A stretch of DNA of 64,000 nucleotides from Escherichia phage phiEco32: sequence record NC_010324.1. One strand, 5' to 3'. The stretch's first letter is position 1; every line of letters begins with the position of its first letter. Below the pieces are notes generated by a model, which had not been told where the DNA came from, searched no databases, and saw nothing but the letters and a program-made list of their open reading frames with translations. The translations under genes and the position numbers were made by a program. Below, one piece after another: positions 1,206 to 52,873 of the stretch.

Positions 1206-1223
1206 AAGCCCCTTCGGGGGCTT
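1206..1223 (+). terminator. GC hairpin with UUCG tetraloop after tail fibre gene (no U-tract; terminator or processing/stability element)
   Basis: aagcccc-ttcg-ggggctt, perfect 7-bp stem, 4 nt after the stop codon; downstream sequence is not T-rich. Confidence 0.3.
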
Positions 1224-1294
1224 TAGTAGTAAGTACCCTTAGTAAGTAATGAAACTAATATATCCCAAGAGGTTAATATATAGGAGACACTCAA

Positions 1295-1513: not shown

Positions 1514-1542
1514 TTTAAAGGGACTACAAAAGGAGGTTAGAA

Positions 1543-2034: not shown

Positions 2035-2046
2035 TGGAGGTGCCTT

Positions 2047-2850
2047 TTGGCTATCGAAACTAATGCGGTAGTTATTACCGACTTAAACCCACTCTATCCT
2101 AGAGACAGGGATTACATCTACGAAGGGGCGGCTCAAATCCGCCTCATTAAGCAAACGTTACAGAACACATTCCCCAATGTTACAGAACCGGTTGATATAG
2201 ATTCTGACACCTTTAAGATTATGTCAGAGAAGCTCAAGTTTACTGGTGATGCAATGGATGTTGGTGGTCTTATGATCAAGAACGTTACTCCGGGAACTGG
2301 TGACAAGGATGTTGTTACTAAAGGTCAGATGGAAGCGTTCATGAAGAACTGGATGGAGAATAAGCTCTATCGAATTGGTTCTTACTACATCACTGAAGAA
2401 GACATTAACCCCGGTGATTCAATCTCCTTAGGGTTTGGTTCTTGGGCTAAAGTGACTGGTGTCATTATGGGTACTGGTGTAGTAAACCCTGATGGCTCTG
2501 TTCCTAATGCTCAGAGAGTTGAGTTCCAAGCAGGTGGTACTGGTGGTCGTGTCTTCAATACTATTCGAACTGAGAACGTACCTTTGATGACTGTTAATGG
2601 CTCCAGCTTCTCTCTATCTAGTAATACTCACAGTCACAATATGGTATTTGGTCGTGGAGATGCTAGTGGTCATAACAGCTCACCAAACTGGTATAGTCCG
2701 GGTGGTGGTTACAGCCAGAGAACTGATAATGACACACATACTCATACAATCTCTGGTAGTGTAAGTCTTGGTCGTGATGATATCTCTCGTCAACCTATTA
2801 ACACTTTGCCACCATTCAGAGCAGCTCACATTTGGAGACGTATTAGCTAA
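2047..2850 (+). CDS. tail fibre-like / tail collar-like structural protein
   Basis: 267 aa; TTG start 5 nt after a strong GGAGGT SD; Gly-rich C-terminal half with HxH motifs (THSHNM, THTHTISGS) as in phage tail-collar/fibre proteins. Confidence 0.45.
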   Translation: MAIETNAVVITDLNPLYPRDRDYIYEGAAQIRLIKQTLQNTFPNVTEPVDIDSDTFKIMSEKLKFTGDAMDVGGLMIKNVTPGTGDKDVVTKGQMEAFMKNWMENKLYRIGSYYITEEDINPGDSISLGFGSWAKVTGVIMGTGVVNPDGSVPNAQRVEFQAGGTGGRVFNTIRTENVPLMTVNGSSFSLSSNTHSHNMVFGRGDASGHNSSPNWYSPGGGYSQRTDNDTHTHTISGSVSLGRDDISRQPINTLPPFRAAHIWRRIS

Positions 2851-2859
2851 GGAGGAATT

Positions 2860-5800: not shown

Positions 5801-5877
5801 TTATAGATAATGATGTTAACAGTAATGCTGCTATCAATGGTTTAACGATAGAGTTTGCTGTTGGCGGGCGGAGATAA
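2860..5877 (+). CDS. large virion-associated protein with tandem bacterial Ig-like (Big_2-type) domains
   Basis: 1005 aa; AAGGAGG RBS; at least three ~80-aa repeats with Ig-like signatures (VTWSSSNASIVSV...GNVTITA; ITWTSSNPNIATVSG...; LVWEVSNSSYGSITVD...). Confidence 0.6.
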   Translation: MALYPIKSLGAVGVIADQAPTDLAPNAFTNAINARFVEQRVFKTGGNAPLSYVDEDKDLTPLSFISMPFDYYSAGNSFLVVGTDKKLYKLTDESLTDISRKVATVTKKASASIKIYPVVSQIVPKESTISMNFNQTKNLEVSLLPADANNTDLVWEVSNSSYGSITVDPSDSKLATLTSFEKEGNLVVTISTANESVVAQIAVNIIDGDSGIFLSQDTVTIRKGGTTTLTAVTGKTPVTWSSSNASIVSVTPNANSLTAVITANGEGNVTITADNGTKTASCEIVSIPQIDSISLSQSDVTVSRGSQYILTATLSPANAPNQNITWTSSNPNIATVSGTSTQGTINALLAGFTEITATTEEGNRIAVCTVRVDLAGRTMRTSAMAFAAPVSESVETQEEEVVTPPESEETVYFAEPTSGIDTSGMYEGNNFYDYSNVNDIEGFARASLLATPLSSVTLDIVSASLDVGEEIVITATASPEGEYSYQWSVDKTGYVSTTSVTGKSIKLVALRKGEINVTCTVSQMTQKDYDAFDDYPWYHAVISNCAVATTHYETPQVKEFESEYFVDLPGWGEQTVVDNDGNPSVKKFNWKCERVRSFNNRLFALNMREANASGVTTNYPLRLRWSNFANENKAPTLWDDFAYDRVVSSDLASNIVGQTQALENGYAGYIDLADSNGSLIDILPLKDYLFVYTEFETYIGSPTNNTYQPLMFKKLFNDSGILAPECVVEVEGSHFVVTQNDVILHNGATKKSIASNRVKNMLINEVCLVNPLATRVHLHQDKKEVWVLYVGPGEPKESFACTKAAVWNYEFDTWSFRTIPYAQCIGLVDPPVLERGPIWSDFQEITWDDPSIKELVWRKDATNFRQRVTIVGSFLKGFYQVDVGALDYFYDRLNDVVIEKPLEMRLERTGIDFDNVTNEWNQKHINRFRPQTTGSGTYIFEAGGSQFSNEYGHPHTSKTYTIGVDRHVSVRLNHPYLFYNVIDNDVNSNAAINGLTIEFAVGGRR

Positions 5878-5881
5878 CAAC

Positions 5882-5910
5882 AAGGGGCTTCGTGCCCCTT
5901 TTATTGTTTT
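5882..5910 (+). terminator. rho-independent terminator
   Basis: aaggggc-ttcgt-gcccctt followed by ttattgtttt; lies between the stop at 5877 and the RBS of the next gene. Confidence 0.55.
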
Positions 5911-5920
5911 GGAGGAACTT

Positions 5921-6889
5921 ATGGGTGCAGGTGGTTTTCGTAAGAACACTGGTCGCAACAACACCACACTCCCGTACAACGTTGGGTTTCTCAATAATGT
6001 ACAGGACACAGAAACATATAACGTAGCCGTGTATGATGAATTACAAAAAGTTAGCACAGCTACTAACCAAATGTTCCAAGCTATAGATGAAATTCACGAA
6101 GAGATTGATGTTCGTATTAAAGCTCTTAATGCAATGAATCTACAATTTGATGAGCTTGAGAATAGAATTACTACAGAGATAGAAACAGCTATTGCAGATA
6201 TCCAAACCCAGATGGGGAACCTGTCCACTGAGGACATTTGGGATAACTCTGTTCAACCTCCTGTGAAGCTGGAAAGCACTGTATCTGGTTTTAAGACTAG
6301 CATCGAAGGTAACACAACTAAGATTCAGACAGTAGAAGGTATTGTTAACGATCAAGGTCAAGAGATTGCTCTTGTTCAGACAGAACTGCAAAATATCAAC
6401 GGAAGCCTTTCTCAGTATATGAAACTCTCTGAGTATGAAGCTACGTGGGGTGTTAACTCTACAGTCAACGGAAGATATGCTGGGGTCAAGTTAACTAACA
6501 ACGGAACAAACAGTCAATTTCAAGTAACAGCTAACAAATTTATTGTTGGTGATGGCAGCTCTGGGAATACTCCATTCGTATTTGAGGGTGGGCGAGCTAG
6601 GATGGAATTCGCTGATATAAAGAACGTCAATATCACAACAGCTCAGATTGCTAACGCTAGAATCCAATGGGCACAGATTGATAACGTATCTATCTCCAAT
6701 GCTCAGATTCAGAACTTATCAGCGGATAAGATTACTGCTGGTTCTATGTGGGGTTCTAACTGGAGACTTACTGTTGGTGGTGATTTTGTTATGGGAGGCA
6801 CAGGTGGGGCACAATTGTGGATGAATGGTAACAGAATAGACTTCTACGATGGAAGTGGTGCTCTAAGAATCAGGATAGGGAGTTGGTAA
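5921..6889 (+). CDS. tail fibre / host-specificity-like protein
   Basis: Start moved from track 5855 to ATG 5921 (GGAGGA 4 nt upstream; track start lies inside the terminator hairpin). N-terminal coiled coil; C-terminal repeats (ADIKNVNITTAQIANARIQWAQIDNVSISNAQIQNLSADKITAG) typical of fibre proteins. Confidence 0.5.
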   Translation: MGAGGFRKNTGRNNTTLPYNVGFLNNVQDTETYNVAVYDELQKVSTATNQMFQAIDEIHEEIDVRIKALNAMNLQFDELENRITTEIETAIADIQTQMGNLSTEDIWDNSVQPPVKLESTVSGFKTSIEGNTTKIQTVEGIVNDQGQEIALVQTELQNINGSLSQYMKLSEYEATWGVNSTVNGRYAGVKLTNNGTNSQFQVTANKFIVGDGSSGNTPFVFEGGRARMEFADIKNVNITTAQIANARIQWAQIDNVSISNAQIQNLSADKITAGSMWGSNWRLTVGGDFVMGGTGGAQLWMNGNRIDFYDGSGALRIRIGSW

Positions 6890-6890
6890 T

Positions 6891-7922
6891 ATGGCATATG
6901 GAATATGGACACAACCAGTAGGGCCGGGGCCAGCAACCCCCGCTCCTTTATTTATTGATAGTGGGAGTACTTTCCCTCAGTTCAAGAATAGTATAAGAGG
7001 GAGTTTTAACTTTAATGGAGCTGGGAGATCTTTCCCTATCAGTGGATGGGATGGCAGTGGTCAGATAGTTATTGTTCCTACTGGTTCTTTATGCTGGCAA
7101 TGGGAAGTCCCTCCTAACTTAGTTCCTGATGTTTATTGTGTGAATAATATCTACGTAGAAAACAACTCCTCTTTTAGGGTTACTTTGAATCAGAACCCCG
7201 GTAGTAATCCACTATTCGACTGTGGGTTCAACGTATACCAAATATGGCCTAGAGCAGATAGGAATTATGGAATTACCTTTTCCAATACAGCAGACTACTT
7301 CTCAATATCTGATAGTGGGGTCGTCGGTCAGTGTATTTGGGCTTGGCAGGGAACTATAGGTAATTCTCTTCAAATACCAAATATTGGTGGTTTTAATATG
7401 GCTAATGCTGTTGTGTTTGCTAACTGGTCTGACGGAGGGATTGGCTTATCTTACACATCTGATGACAGAATTATTCGCGTCTATCAGAACAGGCCTTATG
7501 TCAACGGAAATACTAATGAAGGAGGGTCTGTCTTTGCTAGGGTTGCCGTATTCTGTAACGGAGCCGGTGTTCCTGAGCATAATGGAGGTTTGAACATTTA
7601 CTCTCCGGGTACCACACAATGTGTCTTCTCTACTAACAGAACACCTTTCACTGTGGATACTTTTATAGGCTCAGGAGGTGGTAACACGGGAATGTCATAC
7701 CCTATGATACCTCTTACCTCTGGAATAGGTGCAATAAAAGGCCAAGGTAGTGGATGGAGATATCAGCAAATGAGATCTCACACCATGAGTGGTTCTACTA
7801 TAGGAACTGGCTATGGGAGGTATTTGTTTCAGTGGGATCAAAATTATGACCTAGGAGCTGATACTGTAGTTAATTTATCAGTTCCTGTAATAAATGCAGC
7901 TAAGGTTTTTGCTGGACTATAA
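6891..7922 (+). CDS. putative tail fibre distal / receptor-binding protein
   Basis: 343 aa; start overlaps the previous stop (TAATATG); Gly/Asn/Ser/Thr-rich beta-type composition; position in the tail module. Confidence 0.4.
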   Translation: MAYGIWTQPVGPGPATPAPLFIDSGSTFPQFKNSIRGSFNFNGAGRSFPISGWDGSGQIVIVPTGSLCWQWEVPPNLVPDVYCVNNIYVENNSSFRVTLNQNPGSNPLFDCGFNVYQIWPRADRNYGITFSNTADYFSISDSGVVGQCIWAWQGTIGNSLQIPNIGGFNMANAVVFANWSDGGIGLSYTSDDRIIRVYQNRPYVNGNTNEGGSVFARVAVFCNGAGVPEHNGGLNIYSPGTTQCVFSTNRTPFTVDTFIGSGGGNTGMSYPMIPLTSGIGAIKGQGSGWRYQQMRSHTMSGSTIGTGYGRYLFQWDQNYDLGADTVVNLSVPVINAAKVFAGL

Positions 7923-7934
7923 CAAGGAGATATT

Positions 7935-8717
7935 ATGGCAATTAAGATGGGTATTGAAGAATTAGACCCAATGGTTCAACAGGCTTCAAAGAAGTACGGG
8001 ATTCCTGCTGCTTTGATTCATGCTGTAATCCAAAGAGAGTCTAGTGGTCGTCCTACAGTGGCCTCTGGGACTGGTCCTGTAGGTTTAATGCAGATCAGTA
8101 AAGGGTTGGCTAAAGACTATGGTTACAAACTAGAAGACAGGCTTGACCCAGCAAAGAATATCGATATGGGTGCTCGTTATATTCGAGATAACTTAAAAGC
8201 TTTTAATGGTGATGTTAAGAAAGCAATGGTTGGTTACTCGGAAGGTATAGGCGGTGCTAAGCAGATGTTCGCTGGTAAAAGAGGGTTTACTCCTCAAGCC
8301 CTTGACTCAATGAATAACAAACACTTTCTCCCTTTCTATGGTGATGCAGCTTCTCAGATTGCTAATCCAATTGGGGCTTTACAAGCTGTTCAACCAGTCA
8401 ACCAGTTTAATCCAGACAATTTAGACAGAGAGAAGGCTGCACAAGCTCCAACTCAGGCAGAGATTGCTGCTTCTAAGACTGGTGCTTTAGGTGGCAATCC
8501 AGTAGAGTTTTACTCTGATGAAGCGCAAGAAGGTGAAGACCAGAAGCCTCAACAGAACTTCGGTAATGCAGTATTAGGGGTAGCTGCTATGCTTGCTGGT
8601 AAACCTCCTACTTCTCAAACAGTTCAGAGGGCAAGTGCACCACATGCAGCAGGTTCTCAGTACAGTCCACAAACACAAGCAGTGCTCAGACGTTTAGCTA
8701 GCATTGGTGTAAAGTAA
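7935..8717 (+). CDS. virion-associated lytic transglycosylase (SLT domain)
   Basis: 260 aa; AAGGAG RBS; SLT signature RESSGRP...GLMQISKGLAKDYGY with catalytic Glu. Confidence 0.75.
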   Translation: MAIKMGIEELDPMVQQASKKYGIPAALIHAVIQRESSGRPTVASGTGPVGLMQISKGLAKDYGYKLEDRLDPAKNIDMGARYIRDNLKAFNGDVKKAMVGYSEGIGGAKQMFAGKRGFTPQALDSMNNKHFLPFYGDAASQIANPIGALQAVQPVNQFNPDNLDREKAAQAPTQAEIAASKTGALGGNPVEFYSDEAQEGEDQKPQQNFGNAVLGVAAMLAGKPPTSQTVQRASAPHAAGSQYSPQTQAVLRRLASIGVK

Positions 8718-8736
8718 TAATCTTTAAGGAGGACTT

Positions 8737-9789
8737 ATGTCTTTATTTGGAAAATCAGCTTCTAGCAAAACCACAGTGGCTCCTTCCTCTCAGGTTGATG
8801 CCCTGCTGAAGCAGATTGTTGCTAATGCTCAGAATATGCAGAACAACGATCCGGGATTCATCTCCCAACAGCTGGCTGGGTTTAATGGCAACCAACAGGG
8901 TGCTCTGAATAACTTAGCAGCTTCTACGACTCAGAAGAAGTTAGCTGATATGTACACACCTCGTACACAGCAAGGGTTGGACCAACTAAACTCTCTTGCC
9001 CAGCAGTATCAGAATATTGTCAATGGTGGCGGTCTAACTGCTGATGGTGTTAATAACTTCAGTAAAGGATTGAATAACTCAGCTCTTGCTCAAGCGACTA
9101 GTAAGGCAGCTTCCAATGTATCTCTCGGAAATGGTTCTGATTCAGGTTCTCTCCGTAGAGCTGCTGCTCAAGGTGCTGCTCTGAACAGTGCTAATACAAA
9201 CTTAGCTCGTACTATCAGTGGCAAGAATATGGGAATCAGTGCTCTTCAACAAGACCAAAACTTCCAGAGGGGCTTACTTGGTGCTCAGTCAGGATTGGCT
9301 GGACAGAATCTCAATCTTGGTGCTCAAGGTGTTCAGGCAACTCAACAAGCTATCCAGAATCAACTCATGGCTGGTAACCTACAACAGCAACAAGCCCAAG
9401 CTCAAGCTGATATTAATTGGCAGAACGCTATTGGCTCTCAACAGTATGGGTGGAATCAGCTTAACAACCAACTTAATGTATTAAATAGTGTAAGCCCAAT
9501 GGCTGGGTACACGATTAAGAATGCTGCTCCGGGGGTTAATACTGGACAACAGCTCCTAGGTGCTGGTATCACTGGATTAGGTATTGCAGGTCGTATGGGT
9601 GCTTTCTCTCCTAATCAACAGACTCAGAATGCTTGGAGTTCCTATAACAACTCAGGTGGGCAATCTGGAATGGCTGGTCCTATGATTGGTGGTTCTAATC
9701 TTTCTCAACAGAAAGGTCAGTCTAACTGGTTATCCACAGCAGGTAGTAATATCTTAGGTGGTGTCTTAGGGGCATTTGGAGCAAACTAA
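8737..9789 (+). CDS. Q/N/G-rich virion protein (paralog of 9802..10770)
   Basis: 350 aa; AAGGAGG RBS; low-complexity Gln/Asn/Ala/Gly-rich; shares ...NWQNAIGSQQYGWNQLNNQL... block with the next gene. Confidence 0.5.
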   Translation: MSLFGKSASSKTTVAPSSQVDALLKQIVANAQNMQNNDPGFISQQLAGFNGNQQGALNNLAASTTQKKLADMYTPRTQQGLDQLNSLAQQYQNIVNGGGLTADGVNNFSKGLNNSALAQATSKAASNVSLGNGSDSGSLRRAAAQGAALNSANTNLARTISGKNMGISALQQDQNFQRGLLGAQSGLAGQNLNLGAQGVQATQQAIQNQLMAGNLQQQQAQAQADINWQNAIGSQQYGWNQLNNQLNVLNSVSPMAGYTIKNAAPGVNTGQQLLGAGITGLGIAGRMGAFSPNQQTQNAWSSYNNSGGQSGMAGPMIGGSNLSQQKGQSNWLSTAGSNILGGVLGAFGAN

Positions 9790-9801
9790 AGGAGATTTGA
9801 T

Positions 9802-10770
9802 ATGGGACTTTTCGGAGGCGGGGGTAGTAAAACTACTTCCCAAATGATTCGCCCTGAATACATTCAACAGTATATTGACCAGCTTAACCAGCAGATCGGT
9901 AATACTAGTTCAGGGGATTATGTTTATCGAGATAATGTAGGGTTTAATAATAATCAGACAGAGGCACTTAACAACCTAGCACAATCTGGCGCTTTGGGCA
10001 CTCTCTCACAGCAATACATGGATGCAGCAGGTCAAGGCTTGGGTTATCTAGATAATGCCTATAAAGGCTATCAGAGCCTCTCTGGACAAGGTGGGATTAC
10101 TGGAGAACAGATTGGTGCTCTCGCTGGTCAACTGTATGATGATGACGCTGTGCAAGCAGCCATTACAGCTAATAATGAACAGGTTCAACAGAACTTGGCA
10201 CGTAACGCTCTTCCTCAGTTAGCTCAACAGTTTGCTGGTCAACAAGGTTCAGGTGCTCGTATGGCTAAATCTTTTGCCCAAGGTGATGCTCTGAATCAGA
10301 TGCAAGGCCAAGCAACAGATATTACCAATAGTGCCTATAACTCGGCTATTAGCCAAGCTGAAAGCATCCTCTCTGGTAATCGACAGAATCAGGCAGCTGC
10401 TCTCTCTGGTCTTTCTAATATTGGTTCTAACCTTTCTAACCTAGGTCAGCAGGGTGCTAATTTGTCTCAACAGCAAATAATGAATCAATGGAATGCAGGG
10501 TTGCAGCAACAACAGCAACAACAGAATGAATATGATAATGCCTACCAGAATGCTCAGAACGCAGCTAATTGGGGATGGCAAGATATCAACAACCAACTCG
10601 GTGCAGCAGGTGTACTTAACGGTGCTCTCGGACAAACTACAACTACAAAACAATCTGGTGGTAGTGGTGGCTTCTTAGGTGGAGCTATGAGTGGTGCAGC
10701 AGCAGGCTCTGCATTTGGGCCTTGGGGTGCATTAGCTGGGGGTGTAATCGGTGGGTTGGCTAGTACTTAA
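9802..10770 (+). CDS. Q/N/G-rich virion protein (paralog of 8737..9789)
   Basis: 322 aa; AAAGGAG RBS; ...NAANWGWQDINNQLGAAG... block similar to the previous gene. Confidence 0.5.
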   Translation: MGLFGGGGSKTTSQMIRPEYIQQYIDQLNQQIGNTSSGDYVYRDNVGFNNNQTEALNNLAQSGALGTLSQQYMDAAGQGLGYLDNAYKGYQSLSGQGGITGEQIGALAGQLYDDDAVQAAITANNEQVQQNLARNALPQLAQQFAGQQGSGARMAKSFAQGDALNQMQGQATDITNSAYNSAISQAESILSGNRQNQAAALSGLSNIGSNLSNLGQQGANLSQQQIMNQWNAGLQQQQQQQNEYDNAYQNAQNAANWGWQDINNQLGAAGVLNGALGQTTTTKQSGGSGGFLGGAMSGAAAGSAFGPWGALAGGVIGGLAST

Positions 10771-10783
10771 TTAGGAGATAAAT

Positions 10784-12439
10784 ATGCAACAGACAACTTA
10801 CGCTCAGGTCAGAAGTCGTGACCCGAGAAATACTTTCTATGGTGTTAATCCGGGAGCGGCTTCGGCCTCTCCTTATATGGCTAGACCAACTCAGACAGCA
10901 GATATTTCTATGTACCAACGTCCTGCCGTACCTTCATCTCTTGCGGGTCTTGTCTCTCAGGCAGAAGAAGATCAGAATGCTATGGTTAATCCGGGATTTC
11001 AGCAGCGTCTTATGGAACAACAGAATCAAGGAACTCCTACCAGTCTTCAGGGTATTGATATTGGAGCACCGGCTCCTGTAGCGGCTAACCCCAATCTCTC
11101 CACTGATCAGGGTTTACAGGATGCTGGGCTTATGCCTAGTGACCCTCTTCCGGTAACACCTCCTCCTAAACCACTAGAAGCTGGTCCTATGGAGTTTACT
11201 CCTTCTCAGGTGGAACAGGCACAAGGTGTGATTAACACTCTTGCTCAAGGACAAGACACCGGTGATGGGATGACTGCTGCTACTCGTGCTAAAGATCAGG
11301 AACGTGTTAACAATGATATCTTGCAAGTTGCGAAAGCTAAAGATCCTTCAGAAGCTTGGAACAAACTACAGAAAGAACCATTCTATCAGAACTCTAGTTT
11401 CTACACAGGGTTGATGGGTGTAGGTCTTTCCATTATGTCAGGTAAGTCTCCTATCGAAGCTTTCCAGATTGGTCAGGGAATGGCTAATCAAGATGAGACT
11501 AAGAAGCAACTGGAAGCTAACCGTGATGCTCTGATTGAACAAGGTTTCTCTCAAGACTCAATCGCAGCTGCTATTGCTAACGGAGACCCATCTCTTCTGA
11601 AGATGAAAGCTGTAGACCCTGCTCAGAAAGAAGCTCTGTATGCTGCTCGTGAAGAACGTCAGAATGCTGAATGGGATAGACGTCAACAGATTCAAGAGCA
11701 GGCTATGCGTGAACGTGCCGAGGAAACTCGTCGTGCTGCTGAAAAAAGAACTGATATGAACTTTGAACGTCAGAAAGAGTTGATTGGCTATCGTGATAAA
11801 GTTAAGGCTGAACGTGCTGAACAGGTTGCTCAAAGTTTCAACTTCCCCACGAAAGAAATTCGTAACGCTCAGAATACAGCTGAAGGTACTATCGCTAAGC
11901 AGTGGGCAGAGAAAGGTGGCCTGTTTAATCAGTCTAATAAAGACTTGGACTTGGCTGATAAAGCTGTTAAGGACAAAGACTATCAGACGGCCCGTTCTGC
12001 TTACATGCAGGCTATCATGAACTCCGCAAGGGCTGAAATTGGTTCTACTCGTTCTCTCACTGAAGAAGATTTGGGGCATTTTGCAGAAGACCCATCAATC
12101 TTTATCCGTGTAGGTAACAAGTTTGCTCTGAAGTCTGGATGGCGTCCTACTGATGCTGCTCTTGCTTATGCTCGTAAACAGGCTAACGTCGGTCACACCT
12201 CTGCTATGAAAGGTGTTGCTGATGCTAAGAGAGATACTATCAACGCTTATATTGGTTCTGGTATGGATAAGAAGAGAGCTACTGCATTGGTTAACCGTGC
12301 AATCCCTTCTGGTGGTTTCTATGACCCTCTTGGTGCTTTCTCTGAAGAAGCAGAGGAGGCAGTTGGTGGTGCAGCAACTAATCCTAAACTGAACGGTGCT
12401 TTATCGGCTGTCGAAGACACTAGCTGGTTCACGCAATAA
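10784..12439 (+). CDS. internal virion / ejection protein candidate
   Basis: 551 aa; TAGGAG RBS; Pro-rich N-terminal region then charged coiled-coil-like segments; in the virion module. Confidence 0.45.
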   Translation: MQQTTYAQVRSRDPRNTFYGVNPGAASASPYMARPTQTADISMYQRPAVPSSLAGLVSQAEEDQNAMVNPGFQQRLMEQQNQGTPTSLQGIDIGAPAPVAANPNLSTDQGLQDAGLMPSDPLPVTPPPKPLEAGPMEFTPSQVEQAQGVINTLAQGQDTGDGMTAATRAKDQERVNNDILQVAKAKDPSEAWNKLQKEPFYQNSSFYTGLMGVGLSIMSGKSPIEAFQIGQGMANQDETKKQLEANRDALIEQGFSQDSIAAAIANGDPSLLKMKAVDPAQKEALYAAREERQNAEWDRRQQIQEQAMRERAEETRRAAEKRTDMNFERQKELIGYRDKVKAERAEQVAQSFNFPTKEIRNAQNTAEGTIAKQWAEKGGLFNQSNKDLDLADKAVKDKDYQTARSAYMQAIMNSARAEIGSTRSLTEEDLGHFAEDPSIFIRVGNKFALKSGWRPTDAALAYARKQANVGHTSAMKGVADAKRDTINAYIGSGMDKKRATALVNRAIPSGGFYDPLGAFSEEAEEAVGGAATNPKLNGALSAVEDTSWFTQ

Positions 12440-12459
12440 GACCTAAGTCCTGCCTTCTA

Positions 12460-12468
12460 TAATGTATA
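12460..12468 (+). promoter_or_regulatory. candidate phage promoter element TAATGTATA(TAG)
   Basis: Exact 9-mer 38 nt upstream of ATG 12507 in the only sizeable intergenic gap of the structural block; the same motif recurs at matching distance upstream of minus-strand genes (29383, 33308). Confidence 0.35.
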
Positions 12469-12506
12469 TAGGGGGTAGGACATTTTTATTTATAAAAGGA
12501 GACGTT

Positions 12507-15500
12507 ATGGCTAACATTAAACCGTGGGAAGAAGCTTCCAAAGCTCCTGCGTATCTGAATGCCTCTCCGGAGCAACAAGCTCAAATGAGAGAACAATATA
12601 AGGCAGCAGGTGGCTCTATTCCTGAGGAACAACCAGTAGCACAACCACAACAAGAAGAACGTGGTGCTATAGGCGAGTTTGCTCAAGGTGTGTCAAATGC
12701 TCTTCAATCTGGTGGTGCAAATATTGCAGCTAGTGCTGCTAAAGGTATTGGTGGTTTAGTTGAGATCGGTGAGAATCTAGCTGGAGCACAGACTAGTTAT
12801 GGTAAGCGTATCCAAGAGAACTCTCAGAACCTTCTGAAAGAACGTATGGATAAGATTGAGGATGGGATTGGCAAAACTGTTGGTCAGTATGCTGGCGTTG
12901 CTGGTGATATTGGTATGACTGTTGCTAACCCATTGGCTGCTGCTGCTATCATCGCAGGTCGTGAGACAGGTCGTGCATATGCAGACCAAACCCCTGAAGA
13001 GGGAGAAGATAAGTCTATTCTAGATGCAGCCTTAGTTGGTGGTGCTAACTATGCGGCCCAGAGAATCCTTCCGGGTGCTGTCGGTACAGCTGAGTCCACA
13101 CTTGGACGTATTGGTCAGAACGTTGCCAGTAACGCAGTGGCTGGTGCTAAAGGTGGTGCTCTTGTTGGTGCTGCTGAAGTTCAGAACAAGTATGGGGATG
13201 ACAATGATCTAGCTAAGACATTGGAAGGTGTTATCGAAGAGGGGGCTATGGGTGCTGCATTTGGTGGCGCAGTTGGTGGGGTTCATGGTTTGATTAGCCG
13301 TCCGGATTCTGTTGTTTTCAAGAATACTCCAGAGTATGCGAAGACTGATATTGCTGCTGATGACGAACTGATTCGTAGTGCTAAGAATGTTGATGAACTG
13401 AAAGAGGCTTACTCTAAAGCTGAAACTGCTAACGCTGCTTCTGCTCTGAACCTTCTCGATGAGAATGGGTTCCGTATTACAGATGCTGTTGCTGTAGATT
13501 CTCCTGCTGCTCAGCGTATTCTTAACACTGACCAAGCTCGTGCTGAGAAAGCTGCTTCTGTTCAGAAAGAACACTCCAACATTCCGGGCCTTAATCCTTT
13601 AGCTTCTCCTGCTAAGACTCGTGGTAAAGCTTTCGCTGATAATGAGCACAACCAGAAACAGGCTGTTGCTATGAAGGATGCGATGGCTGACTATACCAAG
13701 GATAACACTAAAGCTCTTACAGATGTTTTAGATAACCTAGATCGTGAATTAACCTCTCTCCGAGCTTCTGGTGATTTTACTGGTAGTCCGATTGATATTA
13801 AGAATCGCACACAAGCTGACCGTGACTTCATTGATGCTTACAAGACTTTCTACAATGAAGCAAATCGATTCAAAGCTCGTGAAGGTGAAGACTTCAATAA
13901 CTTTGTAGAGAAAGCTGCTGAACTACAGAAGATGGCTGATAATGTTTCTCCAGAGATGAAGAAAGCTATTGGTGGTCTGAAGAAACTGAAGGGTATGCCT
14001 GAAGGTTTTAATCCTATTCAAGATGCTTACACTCTGAACAATACAGCTAAGTTCATGAGCAACCAAGATCGTGGTTGGACTTCCCTGACTGATGATGGGT
14101 TCCGTGAGGCCTCTTCTCCTAGTCTGGTAATGAACACTCTCGGTGCTGCTAAATATGCTCTGAATCGCTTCTCTTCTCAGCGTGCCCGTTCTCAACGTGT
14201 TAAGCAACAAGAGTCTAATAGTGAAGCTATCCGCTCTCTGGCTCGTGGTGATTTGGAAGTTGCTCGTGCTAAATCTACTGCTGATGAAGCTCGTGCTAAA
14301 ATGGAAGAAGAACCAGTTGTTGATGACATTAAATTTAAGACGCAAAATGACGTGGAAACCGAACCGGTTCGGGAGCCTTCTTCTAGTACTGTGACGGAAG
14401 AAAATCTTCCTTCTTCTGCTCCTCAAGAATCTCCTCTTACAGCTCGTGATTTAGTTGCGCAAAGACGTGCTATCCGTCAGGCTGAACAGCGTCGCGCTGA
14501 AGAAGAGGCAGCTGCTGCTCAAGAAGCTCCGGTTGAACAGGCTCCTCAGGCTGAACCTCTCCCTGCTCGTAATCCTCTAGAGGAACGTCGTGCAATGGAA
14601 CAGCAACGTGCTCAAGAAGAGGCTACACAGGCTCCAGAACCAACCGTAGAGGAACCAACAGTCAAAGCTGAGCCATTACCTGCTCGTGCTCCTAAAGCTC
14701 CTAAGGAAGCTGTACAGGACGTTAAACCGGCAAGTGGTGTAGAACGTTTAGCTGCTATGTCTAGTGCTGCTCGTCAGGCTACCAAAGATCGTGCAGAACG
14801 TTTTGCTCGTTCTCTGTACTCTAAGGCTGCTAAAGCTAAAGCCACTGCTGAAAACTTCTTGGCTTATAAAGGTGATCCTAAGGAATTGATGCGTCGTATT
14901 CGTCAGGAAGATAATGCTATCAACACTGAACGTCATGAAGAAATGGCTCGTAACCAGCTGGCTTCTCAGCAAGGTATTGCTACTGCTAAGAACAACACTG
15001 TACGAACTAATTTTGCTGAATGGGTTAAGGAACGTGGTCTGCCAGAAGACATTGCTACTAAGGCATTACGTGCTGAAGAGAAAGGTTTAGGTGGGAACGT
15101 AACTAACTTGGATAGTCTGAAACGTCGTGCTGAAAGGTTGTATCAGAAGCAGCGTGAGGATGAGTTTGATAGATTATATCAACAAGCTCTAGAAGAGAAC
15201 AAAGCTTTCGATAAGAAAGATGCTCCTAAACTGGTTGACCAGAAGAAAGAGCTTCAGTCTGAGATTGATGCTTTGATTGATTCAGAACCTTTACGTCCTG
15301 CTCAGAAAGATGCTATGCGTAAGCTGATGAATGACTTTGTAGATGGGAAGTTTAAATCTTCAGAGAAGGCTGGTAGGGAAGAGGCTTTGGAAGTTGGTCA
15401 GATGAAGGATATTTGGGATGGGTTTATTAACACCTACAACAGAGAAGTGAATGCCTTCAACAAAGCTAACAAGAACTCTCAGTACGAAGCTGCTGCTAAG

Positions 15501-16928
15501 CACTTACAGGCTCGTGAAGAACGTCTTGCTACCCTCAGGAAAAAGGCTCAGGCTCGTTCAGATGCTAAGGCTGCTGTTGAGAATGAACGTAAAACTCTAG
15601 AGGCTATTGCAGCTCAGAAGAGTGAGATTGAGAAGATGATGGAAGGTTTACCTAAACCTGTCCGTGAGGCTCAGGAATCTCGTACATTGAAACAGTTAGC
15701 TGCTCACCATGACAAGAACTCTCCAGTTCCTCCAGAGAAGTTCCGTAGTTATATCGAACGTATCCATAACGCCGAGTCAGATTACCTTGATCGTCAGCGT
15801 CGTTTAACTGATGCAGAGGAAGATGCTCGTCAGGCCAAGTGGAACAAGATGTATGAGCAAGCGGAAGAGATGAACCGTAAGTTTGATGTGGACAAGAGAG
15901 TTAAGCGCAGTGAAGAGCTTAAAGCGGCCCAAGAGCGTGAGAATGACCTTATGGCAGTACAACGTCAACGTGATGACATTCATCGCCGCCTGATGCGTAC
16001 TATGGAAGATAAGGGCATATCTAGAGAGGATGCTGAAGCATTTGCTGGTTCCTATATGGATAACCGTTATGCACTTCTTGAGAAGCCTATGACTCCTACT
16101 GAACATCAGAATGCTCGTTCTCGTATCGAAGCTGATGTTGAGAAGTTTGCTAAGAAATACGAATCAATGACTCCTATCGAGAAAGAGATTGTTAAGGTTA
16201 CTGGAGATACTGAAGGTAAGCTTGATAACTTGGATGCGGATACTAGGAAGGCTATTGAGGAGGCTCAGAAGGTTGACTCTGATATCAAGAAACTGCAAGA
16301 GGAAGAGTTGGAGATGGAGAAGATTCGTTCTGCTCTGCCTGATGATGAAAAATCTCAAGCAAATTCTGATATCTTGGAAAGCATTAAACAACAGGAAGAA
16401 GTCTTTGCTGATAAAGTAGAGAAAGCTTTCTTGAGTGGGAAAAGCTTGGATGAGTTGGCTAGTGTGGCTGAAGTTTTAGACAGGGTTCATGGTGCAGATA
16501 AGGCTGGTAACAACCGTCGCTTTGTACGTGCATTGCAGACTGCTGCTGAAAACAAGAAGAAGTATGGTGATAATCCAGTAGCTTGGTTTAGTGCTGATGA
16601 TTACTCTGCCATTGCTAAACTTGGTGCTTCTTCCGCAGGTGGTAACAAATCCAGAGCACTGGAGAAGATCTTTGGTTCTACAGCTGAACAGGCTAAGAGT
16701 AAGTTGCTTGGTAGGGATGATGTAGCGAAGATGAGACGTGTGATTGAAGAGAACCCTGATATCAAGATTCCTTCTTACAAGACAACAAATCGTACTGAGT
16801 ACTTGCAGTTCTTGGAGAAGTTTAATGACGAAGGGAAGCCTAAGATTAAACGTGGCTCATTGTCAGAGAAGCTTGAACGCAGTAAGCGTCAATCGAGACT
16901 CCGTGTAAGAGTTCGACCTAAGGAGTGA
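12507..16928 (+). CDS. very large internal virion protein (~1,473 aa), coiled-coil rich
   Basis: Start moved from 12462 to ATG 12507 (AAGGAG 4-5 nt upstream). Ala/Glu/Lys/Arg-rich with long predicted helical regions, typical of podovirus ejection proteins. Confidence 0.55.
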   Translation: MANIKPWEEASKAPAYLNASPEQQAQMREQYKAAGGSIPEEQPVAQPQQEERGAIGEFAQGVSNALQSGGANIAASAAKGIGGLVEIGENLAGAQTSYGKRIQENSQNLLKERMDKIEDGIGKTVGQYAGVAGDIGMTVANPLAAAAIIAGRETGRAYADQTPEEGEDKSILDAALVGGANYAAQRILPGAVGTAESTLGRIGQNVASNAVAGAKGGALVGAAEVQNKYGDDNDLAKTLEGVIEEGAMGAAFGGAVGGVHGLISRPDSVVFKNTPEYAKTDIAADDELIRSAKNVDELKEAYSKAETANAASALNLLDENGFRITDAVAVDSPAAQRILNTDQARAEKAASVQKEHSNIPGLNPLASPAKTRGKAFADNEHNQKQAVAMKDAMADYTKDNTKALTDVLDNLDRELTSLRASGDFTGSPIDIKNRTQADRDFIDAYKTFYNEANRFKAREGEDFNNFVEKAAELQKMADNVSPEMKKAIGGLKKLKGMPEGFNPIQDAYTLNNTAKFMSNQDRGWTSLTDDGFREASSPSLVMNTLGAAKYALNRFSSQRARSQRVKQQESNSEAIRSLARGDLEVARAKSTADEARAKMEEEPVVDDIKFKTQNDVETEPVREPSSSTVTEENLPSSAPQESPLTARDLVAQRRAIRQAEQRRAEEEAAAAQEAPVEQAPQAEPLPARNPLEERRAMEQQRAQEEATQAPEPTVEEPTVKAEPLPARAPKAPKEAVQDVKPASGVERLAAMSSAARQATKDRAERFARSLYSKAAKAKATAENFLAYKGDPKELMRRIRQEDNAINTERHEEMARNQLASQQGIATAKNNTVRTNFAEWVKERGLPEDIATKALRAEEKGLGGNVTNLDSLKRRAERLYQKQREDEFDRLYQQALEENKAFDKKDAPKLVDQKKELQSEIDALIDSEPLRPAQKDAMRKLMNDFVDGKFKSSEKAGREEALEVGQMKDIWDGFINTYNREVNAFNKANKNSQYEAAAKHLQAREERLATLRKKAQARSDAKAAVENERKTLEAIAAQKSEIEKMMEGLPKPVREAQESRTLKQLAAHHDKNSPVPPEKFRSYIERIHNAESDYLDRQRRLTDAEEDARQAKWNKMYEQAEEMNRKFDVDKRVKRSEELKAAQERENDLMAVQRQRDDIHRRLMRTMEDKGISREDAEAFAGSYMDNRYALLEKPMTPTEHQNARSRIEADVEKFAKKYESMTPIEKEIVKVTGDTEGKLDNLDADTRKAIEEAQKVDSDIKKLQEEELEMEKIRSALPDDEKSQANSDILESIKQQEEVFADKVEKAFLSGKSLDELASVAEVLDRVHGADKAGNNRRFVRALQTAAENKKKYGDNPVAWFSADDYSAIAKLGASSAGGNKSRALEKIFGSTAEQAKSKLLGRDDVAKMRRVIEENPDIKIPSYKTTNRTEYLQFLEKFNDEGKPKIKRGSLSEKLERSKRQSRLRVRVRPKE

Positions 16929-17287: not shown

Positions 17288-17545
17288 CTAGATTAAATCG
17301 TAATACTGAATAATGTCAGAGAGTTTGAACTCTCGAATCTCATCTTTCTCTATATCTATCGCTGTCATAATCCAACAAGGTTTGCCACCGTTATGAAAAC
17401 GGGAGCTAGCAACGGAGGTTCGGAGTGGAATAACGGACCGGTCAGCAACCTCGCCTCTCCAATTGCGATAGCGAAAGCGAAGCACTTGTTGCGTAGATTT
17501 TTGATCATCACTCATTTCCTTTTTTGAATTGTTTTCTTGCATCAT
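17288..17545 (-). CDS. hypothetical protein
   Basis: 85-aa ORF, first minus-strand gene after the convergence terminator; no recognisable motif. Confidence 0.35.
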   Translation of the reverse strand: MMQENNSKKEMSDDQKSTQQVLRFRYRNWRGEVADRSVIPLRTSVASSRFHNGGKPCWIMTAIDIEKDEIREFKLSDIIQYYDLI

Positions 17546-17912
17546 TTTCCATCTTAGTTTTTAGTTTATGACAAGGGTCTTTACACAGAACCTGAAAACC
17601 TTCTTTCTCACACAGAGCACGAGAGATGATTTCGTCCCAAGTTGCTTCATGATCAAGAGGAACTATAGGATCTATGTGGTCAATAGCCATATCCTTTACA
17701 GGGTGGTCAGAACCACACATGGCACACTTAAAGTGCATTGCCAGTCTGCCTGTCTTTGGATTAATCTTCTGCTCTGTCTTGGCGTCTGCTAGTGCATCGA
17801 ACATGGGCTTCCACTTTCTAGTCAGAGAACGAATCCCTGACTTGATGAAAGAGTTATAACGAGCTTCAGTCCACTGATTACTGCATCTTGTTTTATTAGC
17901 CTTCATTTGCAT
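17508..17912 (-). CDS. HNH endonuclease
   Basis: Track ORF 17508..18032 trimmed to internal ATG (MQMKANKTRCS) because the upstream 40 codons overlap the neighbouring gene. Motif KCAMCGS...HPVKDMAIDHIDPIV...LCKDPCHKLK. Confidence 0.55.
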   Translation of the reverse strand: MQMKANKTRCSNQWTEARYNSFIKSGIRSLTRKWKPMFDALADAKTEQKINPKTGRLAMHFKCAMCGSDHPVKDMAIDHIDPIVPLDHEATWDEIISRALCEKEGFQVLCKDPCHKLKTKMENDARKQFKKGNE

Positions 17913-18348
17913 ACTCTCCGTGAAGCTTCTGTCTTTCTTCTCTAAGAGCTTCTGCGGCAGACTCCAGTGAGTCAAAAACTCCCAGTGAGTACCTCCTTTT
18001 ATTAGCAGAAATTCTTGCTCTCCATTTACCATTAGGCTCTTGGGTTATTCCTTTATATCCGGAAGTGTTATTGTTGTTAATTTTTCTATTGTAGGCATTT
18101 TCTAAAGGTGTTACTAGCCTGAGATTATCCCGTCTATTGTTTTGTCTATCGCAATCTATGTGATCTACAATCTTTCCAGAAATATCCAAACCTTCCATTA
18201 GAAAAACCAATCTATGCAACAGGTACTTCTTCCTGTCGATAAAAGCAAAAAGATACCCATCTCGGTCTACCTTAACTCTAAGTCCAGTAAATTCTCCTGT
18301 ACTTGGGTCATACTCAAAAGAGCATCTAGTCTTCTCAGACTTCGCCAT
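17896..18348 (-). CDS. HNH homing-type endonuclease with AP2 DNA-binding domain
   Basis: 150 aa; HNH_3-type motif VDHIDCDRQNNRRDNLRLVTPLEN then AP2-like YKGITQEPNGKWRARISANKRRYSLGVFDSLESAAEA. Confidence 0.75.
   Translation of the reverse strand: MAKSEKTRCSFEYDPSTGEFTGLRVKVDRDGYLFAFIDRKKYLLHRLVFLMEGLDISGKIVDHIDCDRQNNRRDNLRLVTPLENAYNRKINNNNTSGYKGITQEPNGKWRARISANKRRYSLGVFDSLESAAEALREERQKLHGEYANEG

Positions 18349-20222: not shown

Positions 20223-20232
<10 letters not shown>
19333..20232 (-). CDS. P-loop kinase, dNMP-kinase-like (T4 gp1-like) with N-terminal coiled-coil extension
   Basis: Walker A VVILNGPPGCGKDT; downstream DIVVFTDGGFD resembles the T4 dNMP-kinase layout. Assignment by motif only. 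Confidence 0.45.
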
Positions 20233-21718
<1,486 letters not shown>

Positions 21719-21719
<1 letters not shown>

Positions 21720-21979
21720 TATTCTATTCCACGTTCTTTCAGAGCTTCTAGCAATCCATTGTGATTGGCAGCACATTCTGTGTACTGGTCCTGATACCAC
21801 TCCAACGTAGTGGCTAGTGCTTTTCCTTGAGCACTTTCTAAAAGAGGCAGGTCAACCCTACATTCAGCTTTTAGGTTTGTTGGTAAGGGCATTGATTGCC
21901 TGCTGTTGTCGCTCATTGAACAAGCTGACATACTCATCACTAGCGCAGACATTATAAAAAACTGGTTTAGTTTTCTCAT
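21719..21979 (-). CDS. o-spanin candidate (outer-membrane lipoprotein) starting inside the i-spanin gene
   Basis: Track ORF 21719..22078 trimmed to MRKLNQFFIMSALVMSMSAC: signal peptide with lipobox-like MSAC, ~60-aa mature part with Cys and Pro; begins in the +1 frame within the 3' part of 21864..22238. Confidence 0.4.
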
Positions 21980-22238
21980 AATGCATCTCTTTATAAACGG
22001 TTTCCGTGTTCTTCTTCCAGTTAGATAAACCGGTAAGAACCCTCTGAGCAACTTCATCAGCTGCTCTATTTCTTTCAATCTCTAACTCTTGTTGATGTTT
22101 CTCTTTATCCAGATTACTGCTGTCTGTTTGATATTCGTTAAACTTCATACCACCAAAGAATACAAGAGCTGAGAAAACGATAAACCCTAAGTTATCACTT
22201 AACGTGTTTTGCATGTTGTCTCCAACGAAAAAAGCCAC
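21864..22238 (-). CDS. i-spanin candidate (N-terminal TMD plus coiled coil)
   Basis: 124 aa; single N-terminal TMD (LGFIVFSALVFFGGM) then charged helical periplasmic part (EKHQQELEIERNRAADEVAQRV...); lipoprotein ORF overlaps out of frame, as in Rz/Rz1 pairs. Confidence 0.4.
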   Translation of the reverse strand: MAFFVGDNMQNTLSDNLGFIVFSALVFFGGMKFNEYQTDSSNLDKEKHQQELEIERNRAADEVAQRVLTGLSNWKKNTETVYKEMHYEKTKPVFYNVCASDEYVSLFNERQQQAINALTNKPKS

Positions 22239-22250
22239 CCGGAGGTGGCT
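22224..22250 (-). terminator. rho-independent terminator (minus strand)
   Basis: On minus strand agccacc-uccg-ggtggcu followed by uuuuuucg; lies between the SSB stop and the spanin start. Confidence 0.55.
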
Positions 22251-22271
22251 AAGCTATAACAAGGAGAGTTA

Positions 22272-23018
22272 TTAGAATGGGCTATCGTTGTCGTCTTCGT
22301 AAGTAGAAGCAGGCTCTTTATCAATCGTAGGGATTGAAGGAGTAGCTTCTTTCTGCTCTGTTTCAGAAGCACGAGTAATTTCACGACCAGCCAGAGGCAT
22401 GTTCTTAGCGTCATTAGCTTGAGTAAGCAGGTTGCGCTGGAACGGGAACATCAGTTGATATGATGCTACGTTCTCATCGGTTTCAGCATACGGTTCGAAG
22501 AATACCAGAGGACTACGAGCTTCACCAACTGCTGCACGATATTTGGTTGGGATTGGAGAAATGGTCTTGATGGAGTTTTTAACTTCACCAGCTTTGTTAG
22601 TGTAAGAGTTAACCAGAATGTTAACAGGCTGGCCTAACAGAACATCCTTGAACCAAGACAGATCGCCTTTCAGTGCTTGAATACTTGGGTCAATCATCTT
22701 GCAAAGATCAAGAATACCAGAGTTCTTAGCTCGTGGGTTTACATCATAGCTCTTGAACTGGCAAGCCGGACGTGGTTCTAATGCCTTACCATCGGAATCT
22801 TTACCAGTAGCATCAACACCAATCAGCTCGAAAGCCAAATCCATACGGAAAGCCGGATTCTTAGGAGTCACTGCTTTGGTCTTCGGGTCAATCCAAGGGT
22901 CACGATTGTGAACACCCAAACCTACTACACGAACGATACGTGCTTCGTACTCACCATCAGGGATTACATCGTAGTTGGATTTACGGGAAGCAGTTGCGAT
23001 AGTTGGAATCATAGACAT
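22272..23018 (-). CDS. single-stranded DNA-binding protein candidate (T7 gp2.5-like)
   Basis: 248 aa; acidic C-terminal tail ending ...YEDDNDSPF (acidic tail with terminal Phe is the hallmark of gp2.5-type SSBs); preceded by a 400-bp promoter-like intergenic region. Confidence 0.45.
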   Translation of the reverse strand: MSMIPTIATASRKSNYDVIPDGEYEARIVRVVGLGVHNRDPWIDPKTKAVTPKNPAFRMDLAFELIGVDATGKDSDGKALEPRPACQFKSYDVNPRAKNSGILDLCKMIDPSIQALKGDLSWFKDVLLGQPVNILVNSYTNKAGEVKNSIKTISPIPTKYRAAVGEARSPLVFFEPYAETDENVASYQLMFPFQRNLLTQANDAKNMPLAGREITRASETEQKEATPSIPTIDKEPASTYEDDNDSPF

Positions 23019-23077
23019 ATTTTAATTTCCTTATTTAATTTGAAAGATTGTTGCTCTCTTTGAGCGGTTATGTATAG

Positions 23078-23086
23078 TATACATTA
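23078..23086 (-). promoter_or_regulatory. candidate phage promoter element TAATGTATA (minus strand)
   Basis: Exact 9-mer on the minus strand ~60 nt upstream of the SSB start codon. Confidence 0.3.
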
Positions 23087-23149
23087 CGCTTATACCGATA
23101 AGAGTACTATATAATATAAGTATCTTTGGTAGTAGATATATCACACTAG

Positions 23150-23158
23150 TAATGTATA
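23150..23158 (+). promoter_or_regulatory. TAATGTATA element in plus orientation inside the 23.0-23.4 kb intergenic region
   Basis: Exact 9-mer (TAATGTATATAT) pointing away from the SSB gene; no plus-strand ORF downstream; could drive an antisense or small RNA. Confidence 0.25.
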
Positions 23159-23594
23159 TATTGTATAGCTGATAAAGTTATTGCAGGCTTGTATATTGGG
23201 CAATTCATAGAATCCCTTGCAAGTACCGAAGGGCAGGAGCCACCTGCGAGATAAAAATAGAGAATTAAGGAATCCTTGATTTAGGTTGTAGGGACTCCTA
23301 GGGACTTTGATTCTCTATTTAAAAGAATAATAATTACTTATTACCTAAATAATTAACTAACTTACTTAAACCAAATTCAATTAGAATAGATAAAAAGATT
23401 ATTCCTAAGAAAGCTAAGAAGTAAATAATATAAGTTACCATTCAAGTAAACCTTTAAAGTTAGTTTGTTCTACTATCCTCTGATAACGAAGATTAGAATC
23501 AGCTTGTTTCTTTAACATCTCATTATATTGATCTCTGATAGAGTCTTTATAAACTACAGGTTCTTTAAATACTGAGATCTTCTTTTTCTCAGAG

Positions 23595-52796: not shown

Positions 52797-52873
52797 TGGC
52801 GCACCCTACAGGATTCGAACCTGTAACCGACGGATTAGAAATCCGATGTTCTGTCCAATTGAACTAAGGGCGC
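52797..52873 (-). tRNA. tRNA-Arg (anticodon UCU), CCA encoded
   Basis: Minus-strand cloverleaf: acceptor GCGCCCT/AGGGTGC (one G-U), D-arm GTTC-AATTGGACA-GAAC, anticodon loop UUUCUAA, T-arm ACAGG-TTCGAAT-CCTGT, discriminator G then CCA. Acceptor and T-arm match E. coli argU from memory. Confidence 0.85.

Follow-up and report, generated by a model that had tools for sequence, protein, structure and literature searches.

The 64,000-nucleotide (nt) stretch of Escherichia phage phiEco32 analyzed here (NC_010324.1; referred to as the window) carries two overlapping open reading frames (ORFs) on its minus strand, at positions 21719–22214, which very probably represent the two-component spanin of this Kuravirus phage in overlapped architecture, following the definition of Summer et al. 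(2007) and Kongari et al. (2018; PMC6139136). The upstream gene encodes a 116-amino acid (aa) protein with the properties of an inner membrane subunit (i-spanin), and the downstream gene encodes an 86-aa prolipoprotein resembling an outer membrane subunit (o-spanin). An Rz/Rz1-type overlapped pair had been suspected at this place in an earlier note, and the suspicion was borne out by a match of the upstream protein to PHROG 1152, the lipoprotein signal of the downstream one, periplasmic cysteines in both, the genomic context of homologous pairs in the phages 9NA and PM-CJR, and the listing of the pair in a curated spanin set.

The spanin pair is, however correct, already known. In the supplement of Kongari et al. 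(2018), phiEco32, NJ01, KBNP1711 and ECBP2 are classified as “ovl” with proteins of 116 and 86 aa, the latter divided into a 19-aa signal and a 67-aa mature part, and with an overlap of 116 nt (115 nt for NJ01). The comparison with curated sets proposed in the earlier note finds near-identical pairs, listed as overlapped: the curated genes of these four phages are essentially those of the window, with the same upstream sequence (gtggcttttttcgttGGAGAcaac in NJ01), and differ by point substitutions only, e.g., CSM (window) versus CST after the lipobox, the o-spanin of NJ01 being 96.5% identical to that of the window. The same study assigns phiEco32 to the “JH2” i-spanin family, which also includes NJ01, ECBP2, KBNP1711 and Felix O1-like phages, and to a four-member o-spanin family (“NJ01”). 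Moreover, GenBank and RefSeq records use the label “Rz-like spanin” and in some cases “o-spanin”, while one or both genes are given as “hypothetical protein” in some others. A 2025 Kuravirus paper on vAPECPW12 reports a holin, an endolysin and a complement-strand o-spanin at matching coordinates, and overlapping genes for i- and o-spanin, with transmembrane domain and lipobox, were reported for Kuravirus ZCEC16 in a 2026 paper that names SignalP 6 and DeepTMHMM in its methods.

The i-spanin matches the PHROG family 1152 (“Rz-like spanin”) with an E-value of 1.8e-37, its residues 3–116 aligning with positions 6–127 of the 127-position profile. It has one strongly hydrophobic stretch, located at the N-terminus, which gives a predicted transmembrane anchor at about residues 8–24. 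The AlphaFold2 model, built from a 9-sequence alignment, is helical, with helices at residues 3–82 and 93–111, an unstructured segment at 83–92 and a mean predicted local distance difference test score (pLDDT) of 72.5. A single N-terminal transmembrane domain followed by a largely helical periplasmic domain is what the spanin definition describes for this subunit, and the curated table gives 61% helix for the periplasmic domain of the phiEco32 i-spanin (Kongari et al., 2018). Homologues were found by tblastn in 411 phage records, many of them annotated as i-spanin, and C90, E80, K81, N88, Y95, N100 and E101 are invariant across four phage groups.

While the transmembrane and helical domains of this protein had been described correctly before, the length of 124 aa, counted from GTG 22238, most likely has to be revised to 116 aa (MQNTLSDN...KPKS) with the start at ATG 22214. 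The GTG codon lacks a ribosome-binding site and lies within the 3′ arm of a terminator stem, whereas ATG 22214 is preceded at a distance of 6 nt by GGAG, the Shine-Dalgarno site given in the curated set (Kongari et al., 2018). As eight phages of three genera have both the hairpin stem and the GGAG without a single base change, and as the codons in frame upstream of ATG 22214 are conserved only because the hairpin is, the downstream start was adopted; it is also the one used by GenBank and by the curated set.

A predicted lipoprotein gene in the +1 frame

The o-spanin gene starts 235 nt into the i-spanin gene in the +1 frame, shares 116 nt with it and continues for 145 nt beyond the i-spanin stop. 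It was thus rightly described before as a lipoprotein ORF that begins in another frame inside the 3′ part of its neighbor and extends past it, and the position of its end past the i-spanin gene is characteristic of the overlapped class. The N-terminus, MRKLNQFFIMSALVMSMSAC followed by SMSD, fits a PROSITE PS51257-type lipoprotein pattern (matching MSALVMSMSAC), with a lysine or arginine within the first seven residues (here Arg2 and Lys3), the cysteine at position 20 and a serine at +2, and the lipobox-like MSAC of the earlier note agrees with it. Of the 662 ORFs in the six frames of the window that start with ATG and encode at least 40 aa, five show the pattern, and o-spanin is the only one of these with a plausible signal peptide, the other four being without a credible one; no other lipobox or spanin candidate was found in the window. 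By pattern, o-spanin consequently combines a lipoprotein signal and a lipobox cysteine with the absence of Asp at +2, and the predicted mature protein comprises 67 aa from Cys20 onwards (CSMSDNSRQ...). It matches phrog_2425 (E 3.7e-26) and, weakly, phrog_456, an Rz-like spanin family. The AlphaFold2 model (pLDDT 66.5) shows a signal helix, a low-confidence linker at residues 21–33 and C-terminal helices at 53–73 and 76–82. Both predicted mature proteins contain periplasmic cysteines, of which i-spanin C90 and o-spanin C69 are invariant and o-spanin C40 is present in seven of nine sequences.

For the comparison of related loci, pairs were extracted from KBNP1711, 101114UKE3, HC-25922, SU7, PAS59, Proteus phage PM-CJR, Salmonella phage 9NA, Erwinia phage M7 and Salmonella phage Mushroom. 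By tblastn, o-spanin homologues were found in 193 phage records, all covering at least 80% of the protein and reaching down to about 28% identity; many are annotated as o-spanin, and among the matches listed most begin in the first few residues, i.e., include the signal peptide. In the pairs without an inserted endonuclease gene, it is always the same conserved block of the i-spanin (…EKTKPVFYNVC…) at which the lipoprotein ORF begins in the +1 frame, and every o-spanin extracted from such a pair passes the lipobox test. The lipobox residue Cys20 (nine homologues), o-spanin C69 and i-spanin C90 are invariant throughout Gordonclarkvirinae, Ounavirinae, Nonanavirus and Gorganvirus. A comparison of six uninterrupted orthologues gave 16 variable sites among 116 in the overlap versus 145 among 380 outside (Fisher p = 4.3e-7), corresponding to 13.8% in the overlap, 35.7% in the part coding for i-spanin only and 42.1% in the part coding for o-spanin only. 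The changes within the overlap fall mostly at the third codon position of the i-spanin frame, as expected with two constrained frames. In Salmonella phage 9NA and Proteus phage PM-CJR, a homologous overlapped pair directly follows the holin and endolysin genes, which is the strongest contextual evidence for the identity of the pair as a spanin.

Short ORFs in alternative frames are common, and several spurious ones are present in this very stretch, so that the downstream reading frame could in principle have been open by chance within and after a real gene. The probability of this is practically nil, and the conservation described above already refutes it: the frame extends 145 nt past the i-spanin gene into a region where nothing else codes, its homologues reach far across phage records, its cysteines are invariant and its lipobox pattern is rare.

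Another explanation concerns the start codon. If only the upstream gene were a real membrane protein and translation of the downstream one began at ATG 21892, a 57-aa product would result, and there would be neither a lipoprotein nor an overlapped pair. This gene model, a 174-nt coding sequence (CDS) corresponding to 21719..21892 in window coordinates, is the one found in the annotations of ShigP1 and SU10 and in the vAPECPW12 paper. Nevertheless, it is highly improbable, as the reading frame stays open through 29 conserved codons upstream, which specify a signal peptide and lipobox in every relative examined, including distant ones, and as variability falls within the overlap. Furthermore, ATG 21979 is preceded at 7 nt by a GAG Shine-Dalgarno motif, an N-terminus displaced by a homing endonuclease gene receives a new lipoprotein signal (see below), and the curators moved the start upstream themselves, noting a LipoP hit after doing so (Kongari et al., 2018). 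Starts further upstream (TTG 22078, or an ATG giving 112 aa) were also considered but discarded, because UKE3 and HC-25922 lack them and the cysteine would come to lie at about position 46. The truncated 57-aa form, without signal peptide and lipobox, is found in most public records (ShigP1, SU10 and many others) as well as in the 2025 paper. The practical value of the present analysis for annotation is hence that the 86-aa o-spanin start at 21979 should be propagated in Kuravirus records.

An endonuclease gene within the spanin overlap

In about seven related phages, an endonuclease gene inserted within the spanin overlap turns the overlapped pair into a separated one. A free-standing gene of HNH_3-AP2 architecture lies between the spanin genes in SU7, PAS59, Bas86 and Bas87, and a diverged form of it in E20-1 and EK010. 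In SU7, a 31-nt part of the overlap beginning with the cysteine codon is duplicated relative to the uninterrupted congener UKE3. One copy has been recoded, for the most part synonymously with respect to the i-spanin frame, and here a 113-aa i-spanin terminates with a new tail; the mature o-spanin starts at the other copy, which is unaltered. The replacement o-spanin N-termini are unrelated to the original, MLTKKKQKSCLVIFLASSLMAC in SU7 and PAS59 and (V/M)HIKKKLLSCTGILLAFSLSAC in E20-1, but they are again lipoprotein signals with the cysteine in the same place, and their coding sequence lies, in a different reading frame, in the 3′-terminal part of the endonuclease gene.

Since the displaced N-terminus was replaced by a new signal of the same kind, both genes and specifically the lipoprotein signal have been kept by selection, whereas the overlap itself is dispensable. 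The overlap sequence near GCTTGTTCAA(C/T)GAGCGACAACAGCAGGCA might be the homing site of the SU7/E20-1 HNH_3-AP2 enzyme. If true, the endonuclease would be a mobile element that brings along a working part of a gene of its host phage. A literature search on these terms returned no mention of an endonuclease splitting a spanin pair. In the window itself, two overlapping HNH-type ORFs (17508..18348, minus strand) open the minus-strand block; one of them (17896..18348) has the same HNH_3 plus AP2 architecture as the spanin-splitting endonuclease of SU7, and the other is a weak HNH_5 match.

Function, expression and neighboring genes

By analogy with lambda Rz/Rz1 and T4 PseT.3/PseT.2, as summarized by Kongari et al. 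(2018), the 116-aa i-spanin would be held in the inner membrane by its N-terminal anchor and extend a two-helix domain into the periplasm. The 86-aa o-spanin precursor would be cleaved at the lipobox between MSA and C and lipidated on Cys20, and with Ser at +2 its destination would be the inner leaflet of the outer membrane. The C-termini of both proteins could then associate across the periplasm, with the periplasmic cysteines (C90 of i-spanin; C40 and C69 of o-spanin) possibly forming intermolecular disulfides and disulfide-linked homodimers, and the resulting complexes would bridge the periplasm through the peptidoglycan mesh. Once the GH24 endolysin, released by the holin-family protein of the late block, has destroyed the peptidoglycan, the freed spanin complexes would fuse inner and outer membranes and thereby complete lysis. 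By definition, spanins are needed to disrupt the outer membrane, and their mutants stop as spherical cells where divalent cations stabilize that membrane. Because spanins are inactive until the wall is degraded, their early synthesis should be harmless.

Several points weigh against this assignment. Neither spanin has a significant match among Pfam (including the families of lambda Rz and Rz1), NCBIfam or PDB sequences, the PHROG of o-spanin itself (phrog_2425) is labelled “unknown function”, the lipobox carries Met at −3, which is rarer there than Leu, and the AlphaFold2 models, both based on the 9-sequence alignment, are of moderate confidence only. Moreover, literature searches found no experiment on the spanin pair of the phiEco32-like family. 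The genes also sit among replication and transcription genes and not with holin and endolysin, and the timing and level of their expression are uncertain, as a hairpin separates them from the sole recognizable upstream promoter. Weak NCBIfam matches (Mfa1, BsmA) were confined to the lipoprotein-signal region and not significant.

The location of the pair raises the question of whether these proteins might constitute a membrane protein/lipoprotein system with an earlier, non-lytic role, e.g., in superinfection exclusion or envelope remodelling, as known for Llp and Cor. Such a role would explain the place in the middle block beside the macro-domain and sigma-factor genes, it would be in line with the distance of 19.7 kb to holin and endolysin on the opposite strand, with the middle expression class and with the overlap of the o-spanin stop and the macro gene start, and the literature searches mentioned above returned no functional test. 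We nonetheless regard it as quite unlikely, given that homologues fill the spanin slot of the classical lysis cassettes of 9NA and PM-CJR, that topology, sizes, periplasmic cysteines and overlapped layout all fit the spanin definition, that the window offers no alternative spanin candidate, and that T4 and Felix O1-like phages likewise keep bona fide or curated spanins apart from holin and endolysin. The spanin assignment is accordingly maintained in the following description of the locus (Table 1).

Table 1. Features of the spanin locus, the remote lysis genes and the pair-splitting endonuclease (window coordinates unless indicated otherwise).
Feature	Position	Strand	Basis or remark
Holin-family ORF, 72 aa	1295..1513	+	phrog_11161 holin, E 2.8e-50; immediately upstream of endolysin
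Endolysin, GH24 phage lysozyme, 163 aa	1543..2034	+	PF00959, E 4.3e-32; late structural block
Sigma-70-like promoter TGGACA-18-TATAAT	21278..21307	−	Overlaps 3′ end of macro gene; for phage sigma-factor gene
Macro-domain gene	21279..21719	−	PF01661, E 8.2e-11; downstream of o-spanin
o-Spanin gene, 86-aa prolipoprotein	21719..21979	−	Lipobox pattern, phrog_2425, curated 86/67/19 aa
i-Spanin gene, 116 aa	21864..22214	−	ORF, PHROG 1152 match, curated length and start
Dual-coding overlap, 116 nt	21864..21979	−	Last 38 codons of i-spanin (frame 0); o-spanin signal, lipobox and first mature residues (+1)
Lipobox M-S-A-C, o-spanin residues 17–20	21920..21931	−	Cys20 as predicted lipid-modified N-terminus
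i-Spanin membrane-anchor core, residues 9–23 (LGFIVFSALVFFGGM)	22146..22190	−	Kyte-Doolittle 15-residue maximum 2.23
GGAG ribosome-binding site	22220..22223	−	6 nt before ATG 22214; kept in 8 phages
Terminator-like hairpin AGCCACC-TCCG-GGTGGCT plus T run (TTTTTCG)	22227..22250 (stem 22250..22233)	−	Directly upstream of i-spanin ribosome-binding site; contains GTG 22238
Upstream 248-aa gene	22272..23018	−	phrog_6599, function unknown; acidic C-terminal tail YEDDNDSPF
gp36-type (phage-sigma) middle promoter TAATGTATA	23078..23086	−	Upstream of 248-aa gene, which it drives
HNH_3-AP2 gene of relatives	SU7 1192-2229; PAS59 388-1425; E20-1 388-1425 (in extracted stretches)		Place equivalent to window 21864..21979

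The region 21000..23200 shares 98.6% identity with Shigella phage ShigP1 along its entire length and 97–98.5% with vB_EcoP_SU10, MN03 and many more E. coli phages of the genus Kuravirus (Gordonclarkvirinae), which comprises phiEco32-like podophages of the C3 morphotype. Plus-strand genes from position 84 to 16928 form the structural (late) block, and minus-strand genes follow from about 17100 on. Reading along the minus strand, the stop codon of the 248-aa gene is followed by the hairpin, the GGAG and the i-spanin ATG; SU10 and several other phages carry an additional, inserted HNH gene between the hairpin and the 248-aa gene. Plus-strand ORFs in 21487..22028 were treated as antisense noise.

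The hairpin has a calculated free energy of −13.7 kcal/mol (z −2.6) and does not appear in the list of four terminators that the genome paper gives for SU10. It may attenuate transcription into the spanin, macro and sigma-factor region. The nearest recognizable promoter upstream of the spanins is TAATGTATA, with the 248-aa gene and the hairpin in between; it is identical to the middle promoter of SU10 “between CDS37 and CDS38” and also fits the AATGTA motif of the gp36 holoenzyme. In the SU10 paper, the spanins are CDS34 and CDS35 within a “middle” block (CDS25–68) assigned by homology to phiEco32, holin and lysozyme are counted among the late genes, and a sigma-70-like promoter is described for CDS32. 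The temporal class of the spanins rests on this paper and a 2025 paper in Nucleic Acids Research. The pair is probably transcribed from the promoter at about 23086 via read-through of the hairpin, and its expression would then be attenuated and fall in the middle phase.

The conserved hairpin in front, the middle operon, the coupling to the macro gene and the sigma-factor promoter just downstream together also led us to consider whether the position of the pair is functional instead of incidental, e.g., as part of a dosage- and time-limited “pre-loading” programme, perhaps with a second, pre-lytic role in the envelope; this idea is, however, speculative and rather unlikely.

The pair had further been located in the minus-strand block between a macro domain gene and a gene for SSB. 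While the former was confirmed by Pfam, the SSB label is without support from Pfam, PDB or a functional PHROG match, and the SSB-like acidic tail (..DDNDSPF) of the 248-aa protein is the only pointer in this direction. The o-spanin stop and the ATG of the macro gene overlap (TAATG), an arrangement suggestive of translational coupling. In Erwinia phage M7 (Ounavirinae), too, the gene right behind the spanin homologues encodes a macro homologue (24% identity, E 3e-6; 1778-2560 in the extracted stretch), while in KBNP1711, UKE3, HC-25922, SU7 and PAS59 the macro slot is occupied by an unrelated ORF of 69–74 aa. The synteny of spanins and macro gene is hence common to different subfamilies and yet variable inside Gordonclarkvirinae. 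Further downstream, past the sigma factor, the gene at 20223..20615 (minus strand), annotated as “GTP-binding protein”, belongs to the SLOG family and is related to YspA/cpYpsA (PF10686, E 2.7e-7), so that the public label is probably uninformative.

The holin and lysozyme genes lie 19.7 kb away on the plus strand, in agreement with the earlier estimate of about 20 kb, and the classical linkage of holin, endolysin and spanin genes is consequently absent from the window; the identity of both genes was supported by phrog_11161 and PF00959, respectively. The window therewith contains a complete set of holin, endolysin and spanin for lysis, a confirmation that adds little by itself. The assignment of the holin in Kuravirus, however, looks unsettled: the 72-aa protein has a single hydrophobic stretch near the N-terminus, and in the 2026 paper on ZCEC16 the predictors give a signal peptide and no transmembrane domain for the holin ORF. 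The endolysin is called SAR-type in that paper, but the N-terminus of the window endolysin (MDNVALPPVQLNLSPAG...) is not hydrophobic. The only Rfam match in the whole window is a single tRNA-Arg (anticodon TCT; 52797..52873, minus strand), which was also found by ARAGORN and is likewise reported for ZCEC16; Rfam gave no match at the spanin locus.

Apart from the annotation correction, the residual interest of the locus lies in the conserved hairpin, the spanin-macro synteny with M7 and the endonuclease that splits the pair.

Comparison with known spanin systems

The likeness to lambda Rz/Rz1 extends to an N-terminally anchored helical inner membrane protein, an outer membrane lipoprotein encoded in the +1 frame, periplasmic cysteines in both proteins and, by analogy, the presumed fusion of the membranes after degradation of the wall. 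There are, however, clear differences: Rz1 is fully embedded in Rz, whereas the o-spanin gene of the window runs past the i-spanin stop, and Rz and Rz1 are the last genes of a lysis cassette, whereas the present pair is unlinked. No sequence homology to the lambda proteins is detectable, and membership in the families of Rz (Pfam Phage_lysis) or Rz1 was rejected, as no profile reached the threshold. Because of the missing Pfam and NCBIfam matches, the pair is to be seen as analogous to Rz/Rz1 and not as a member of their sequence families.

Closer relatives are the pairs of Felix O1-like phages (Ounavirinae), including gp091/gp092 of Salmonella phage Mushroom and gp099/gp100 of Erwinia phage M7, which belong to the same i-spanin family. 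Their i-spanins are about 27–33% identical to that of the window and have the motif EK..P.F.N.C..D.Y...FNE in common with it, their o-spanins start in the +1 frame at the same conserved block, and the pairs again lie at a distance from the holin and endolysin genes. The pair of M7 is followed by a macro-like “phosphatase”, a homologue of the macro protein of the window. The low identity, the myovirus genomes and the other flanking genes, except for the macro-like one, set these phages apart from the window.

In T4, PseT.3 and PseT.2 are of similar sizes (117 and 83 aa), and a C-terminal helix is likewise predicted for the o-spanin, but the T4 genes are “separated” while those of the window overlap. 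The T4 spanin genes are not near the holin gene t or the endolysin gene e (Kongari et al., 2018), and in phage Privateer about 12 kb lie between spanins and endolysin. As T4 lacks it, linkage to holin and endolysin is not a defining property of spanins. The pair of the window is one more case, beside T4 and the Felix O1-like phages, of unlinked spanins in an earlier transcription class, a layout which fits the view of spanins as harmless until the wall is removed. Its remote position is consequently no anomaly, being the standard layout in Kuravirus and having its counterparts in the likewise separated spanin genes of T4 and Felix O1-like phages.

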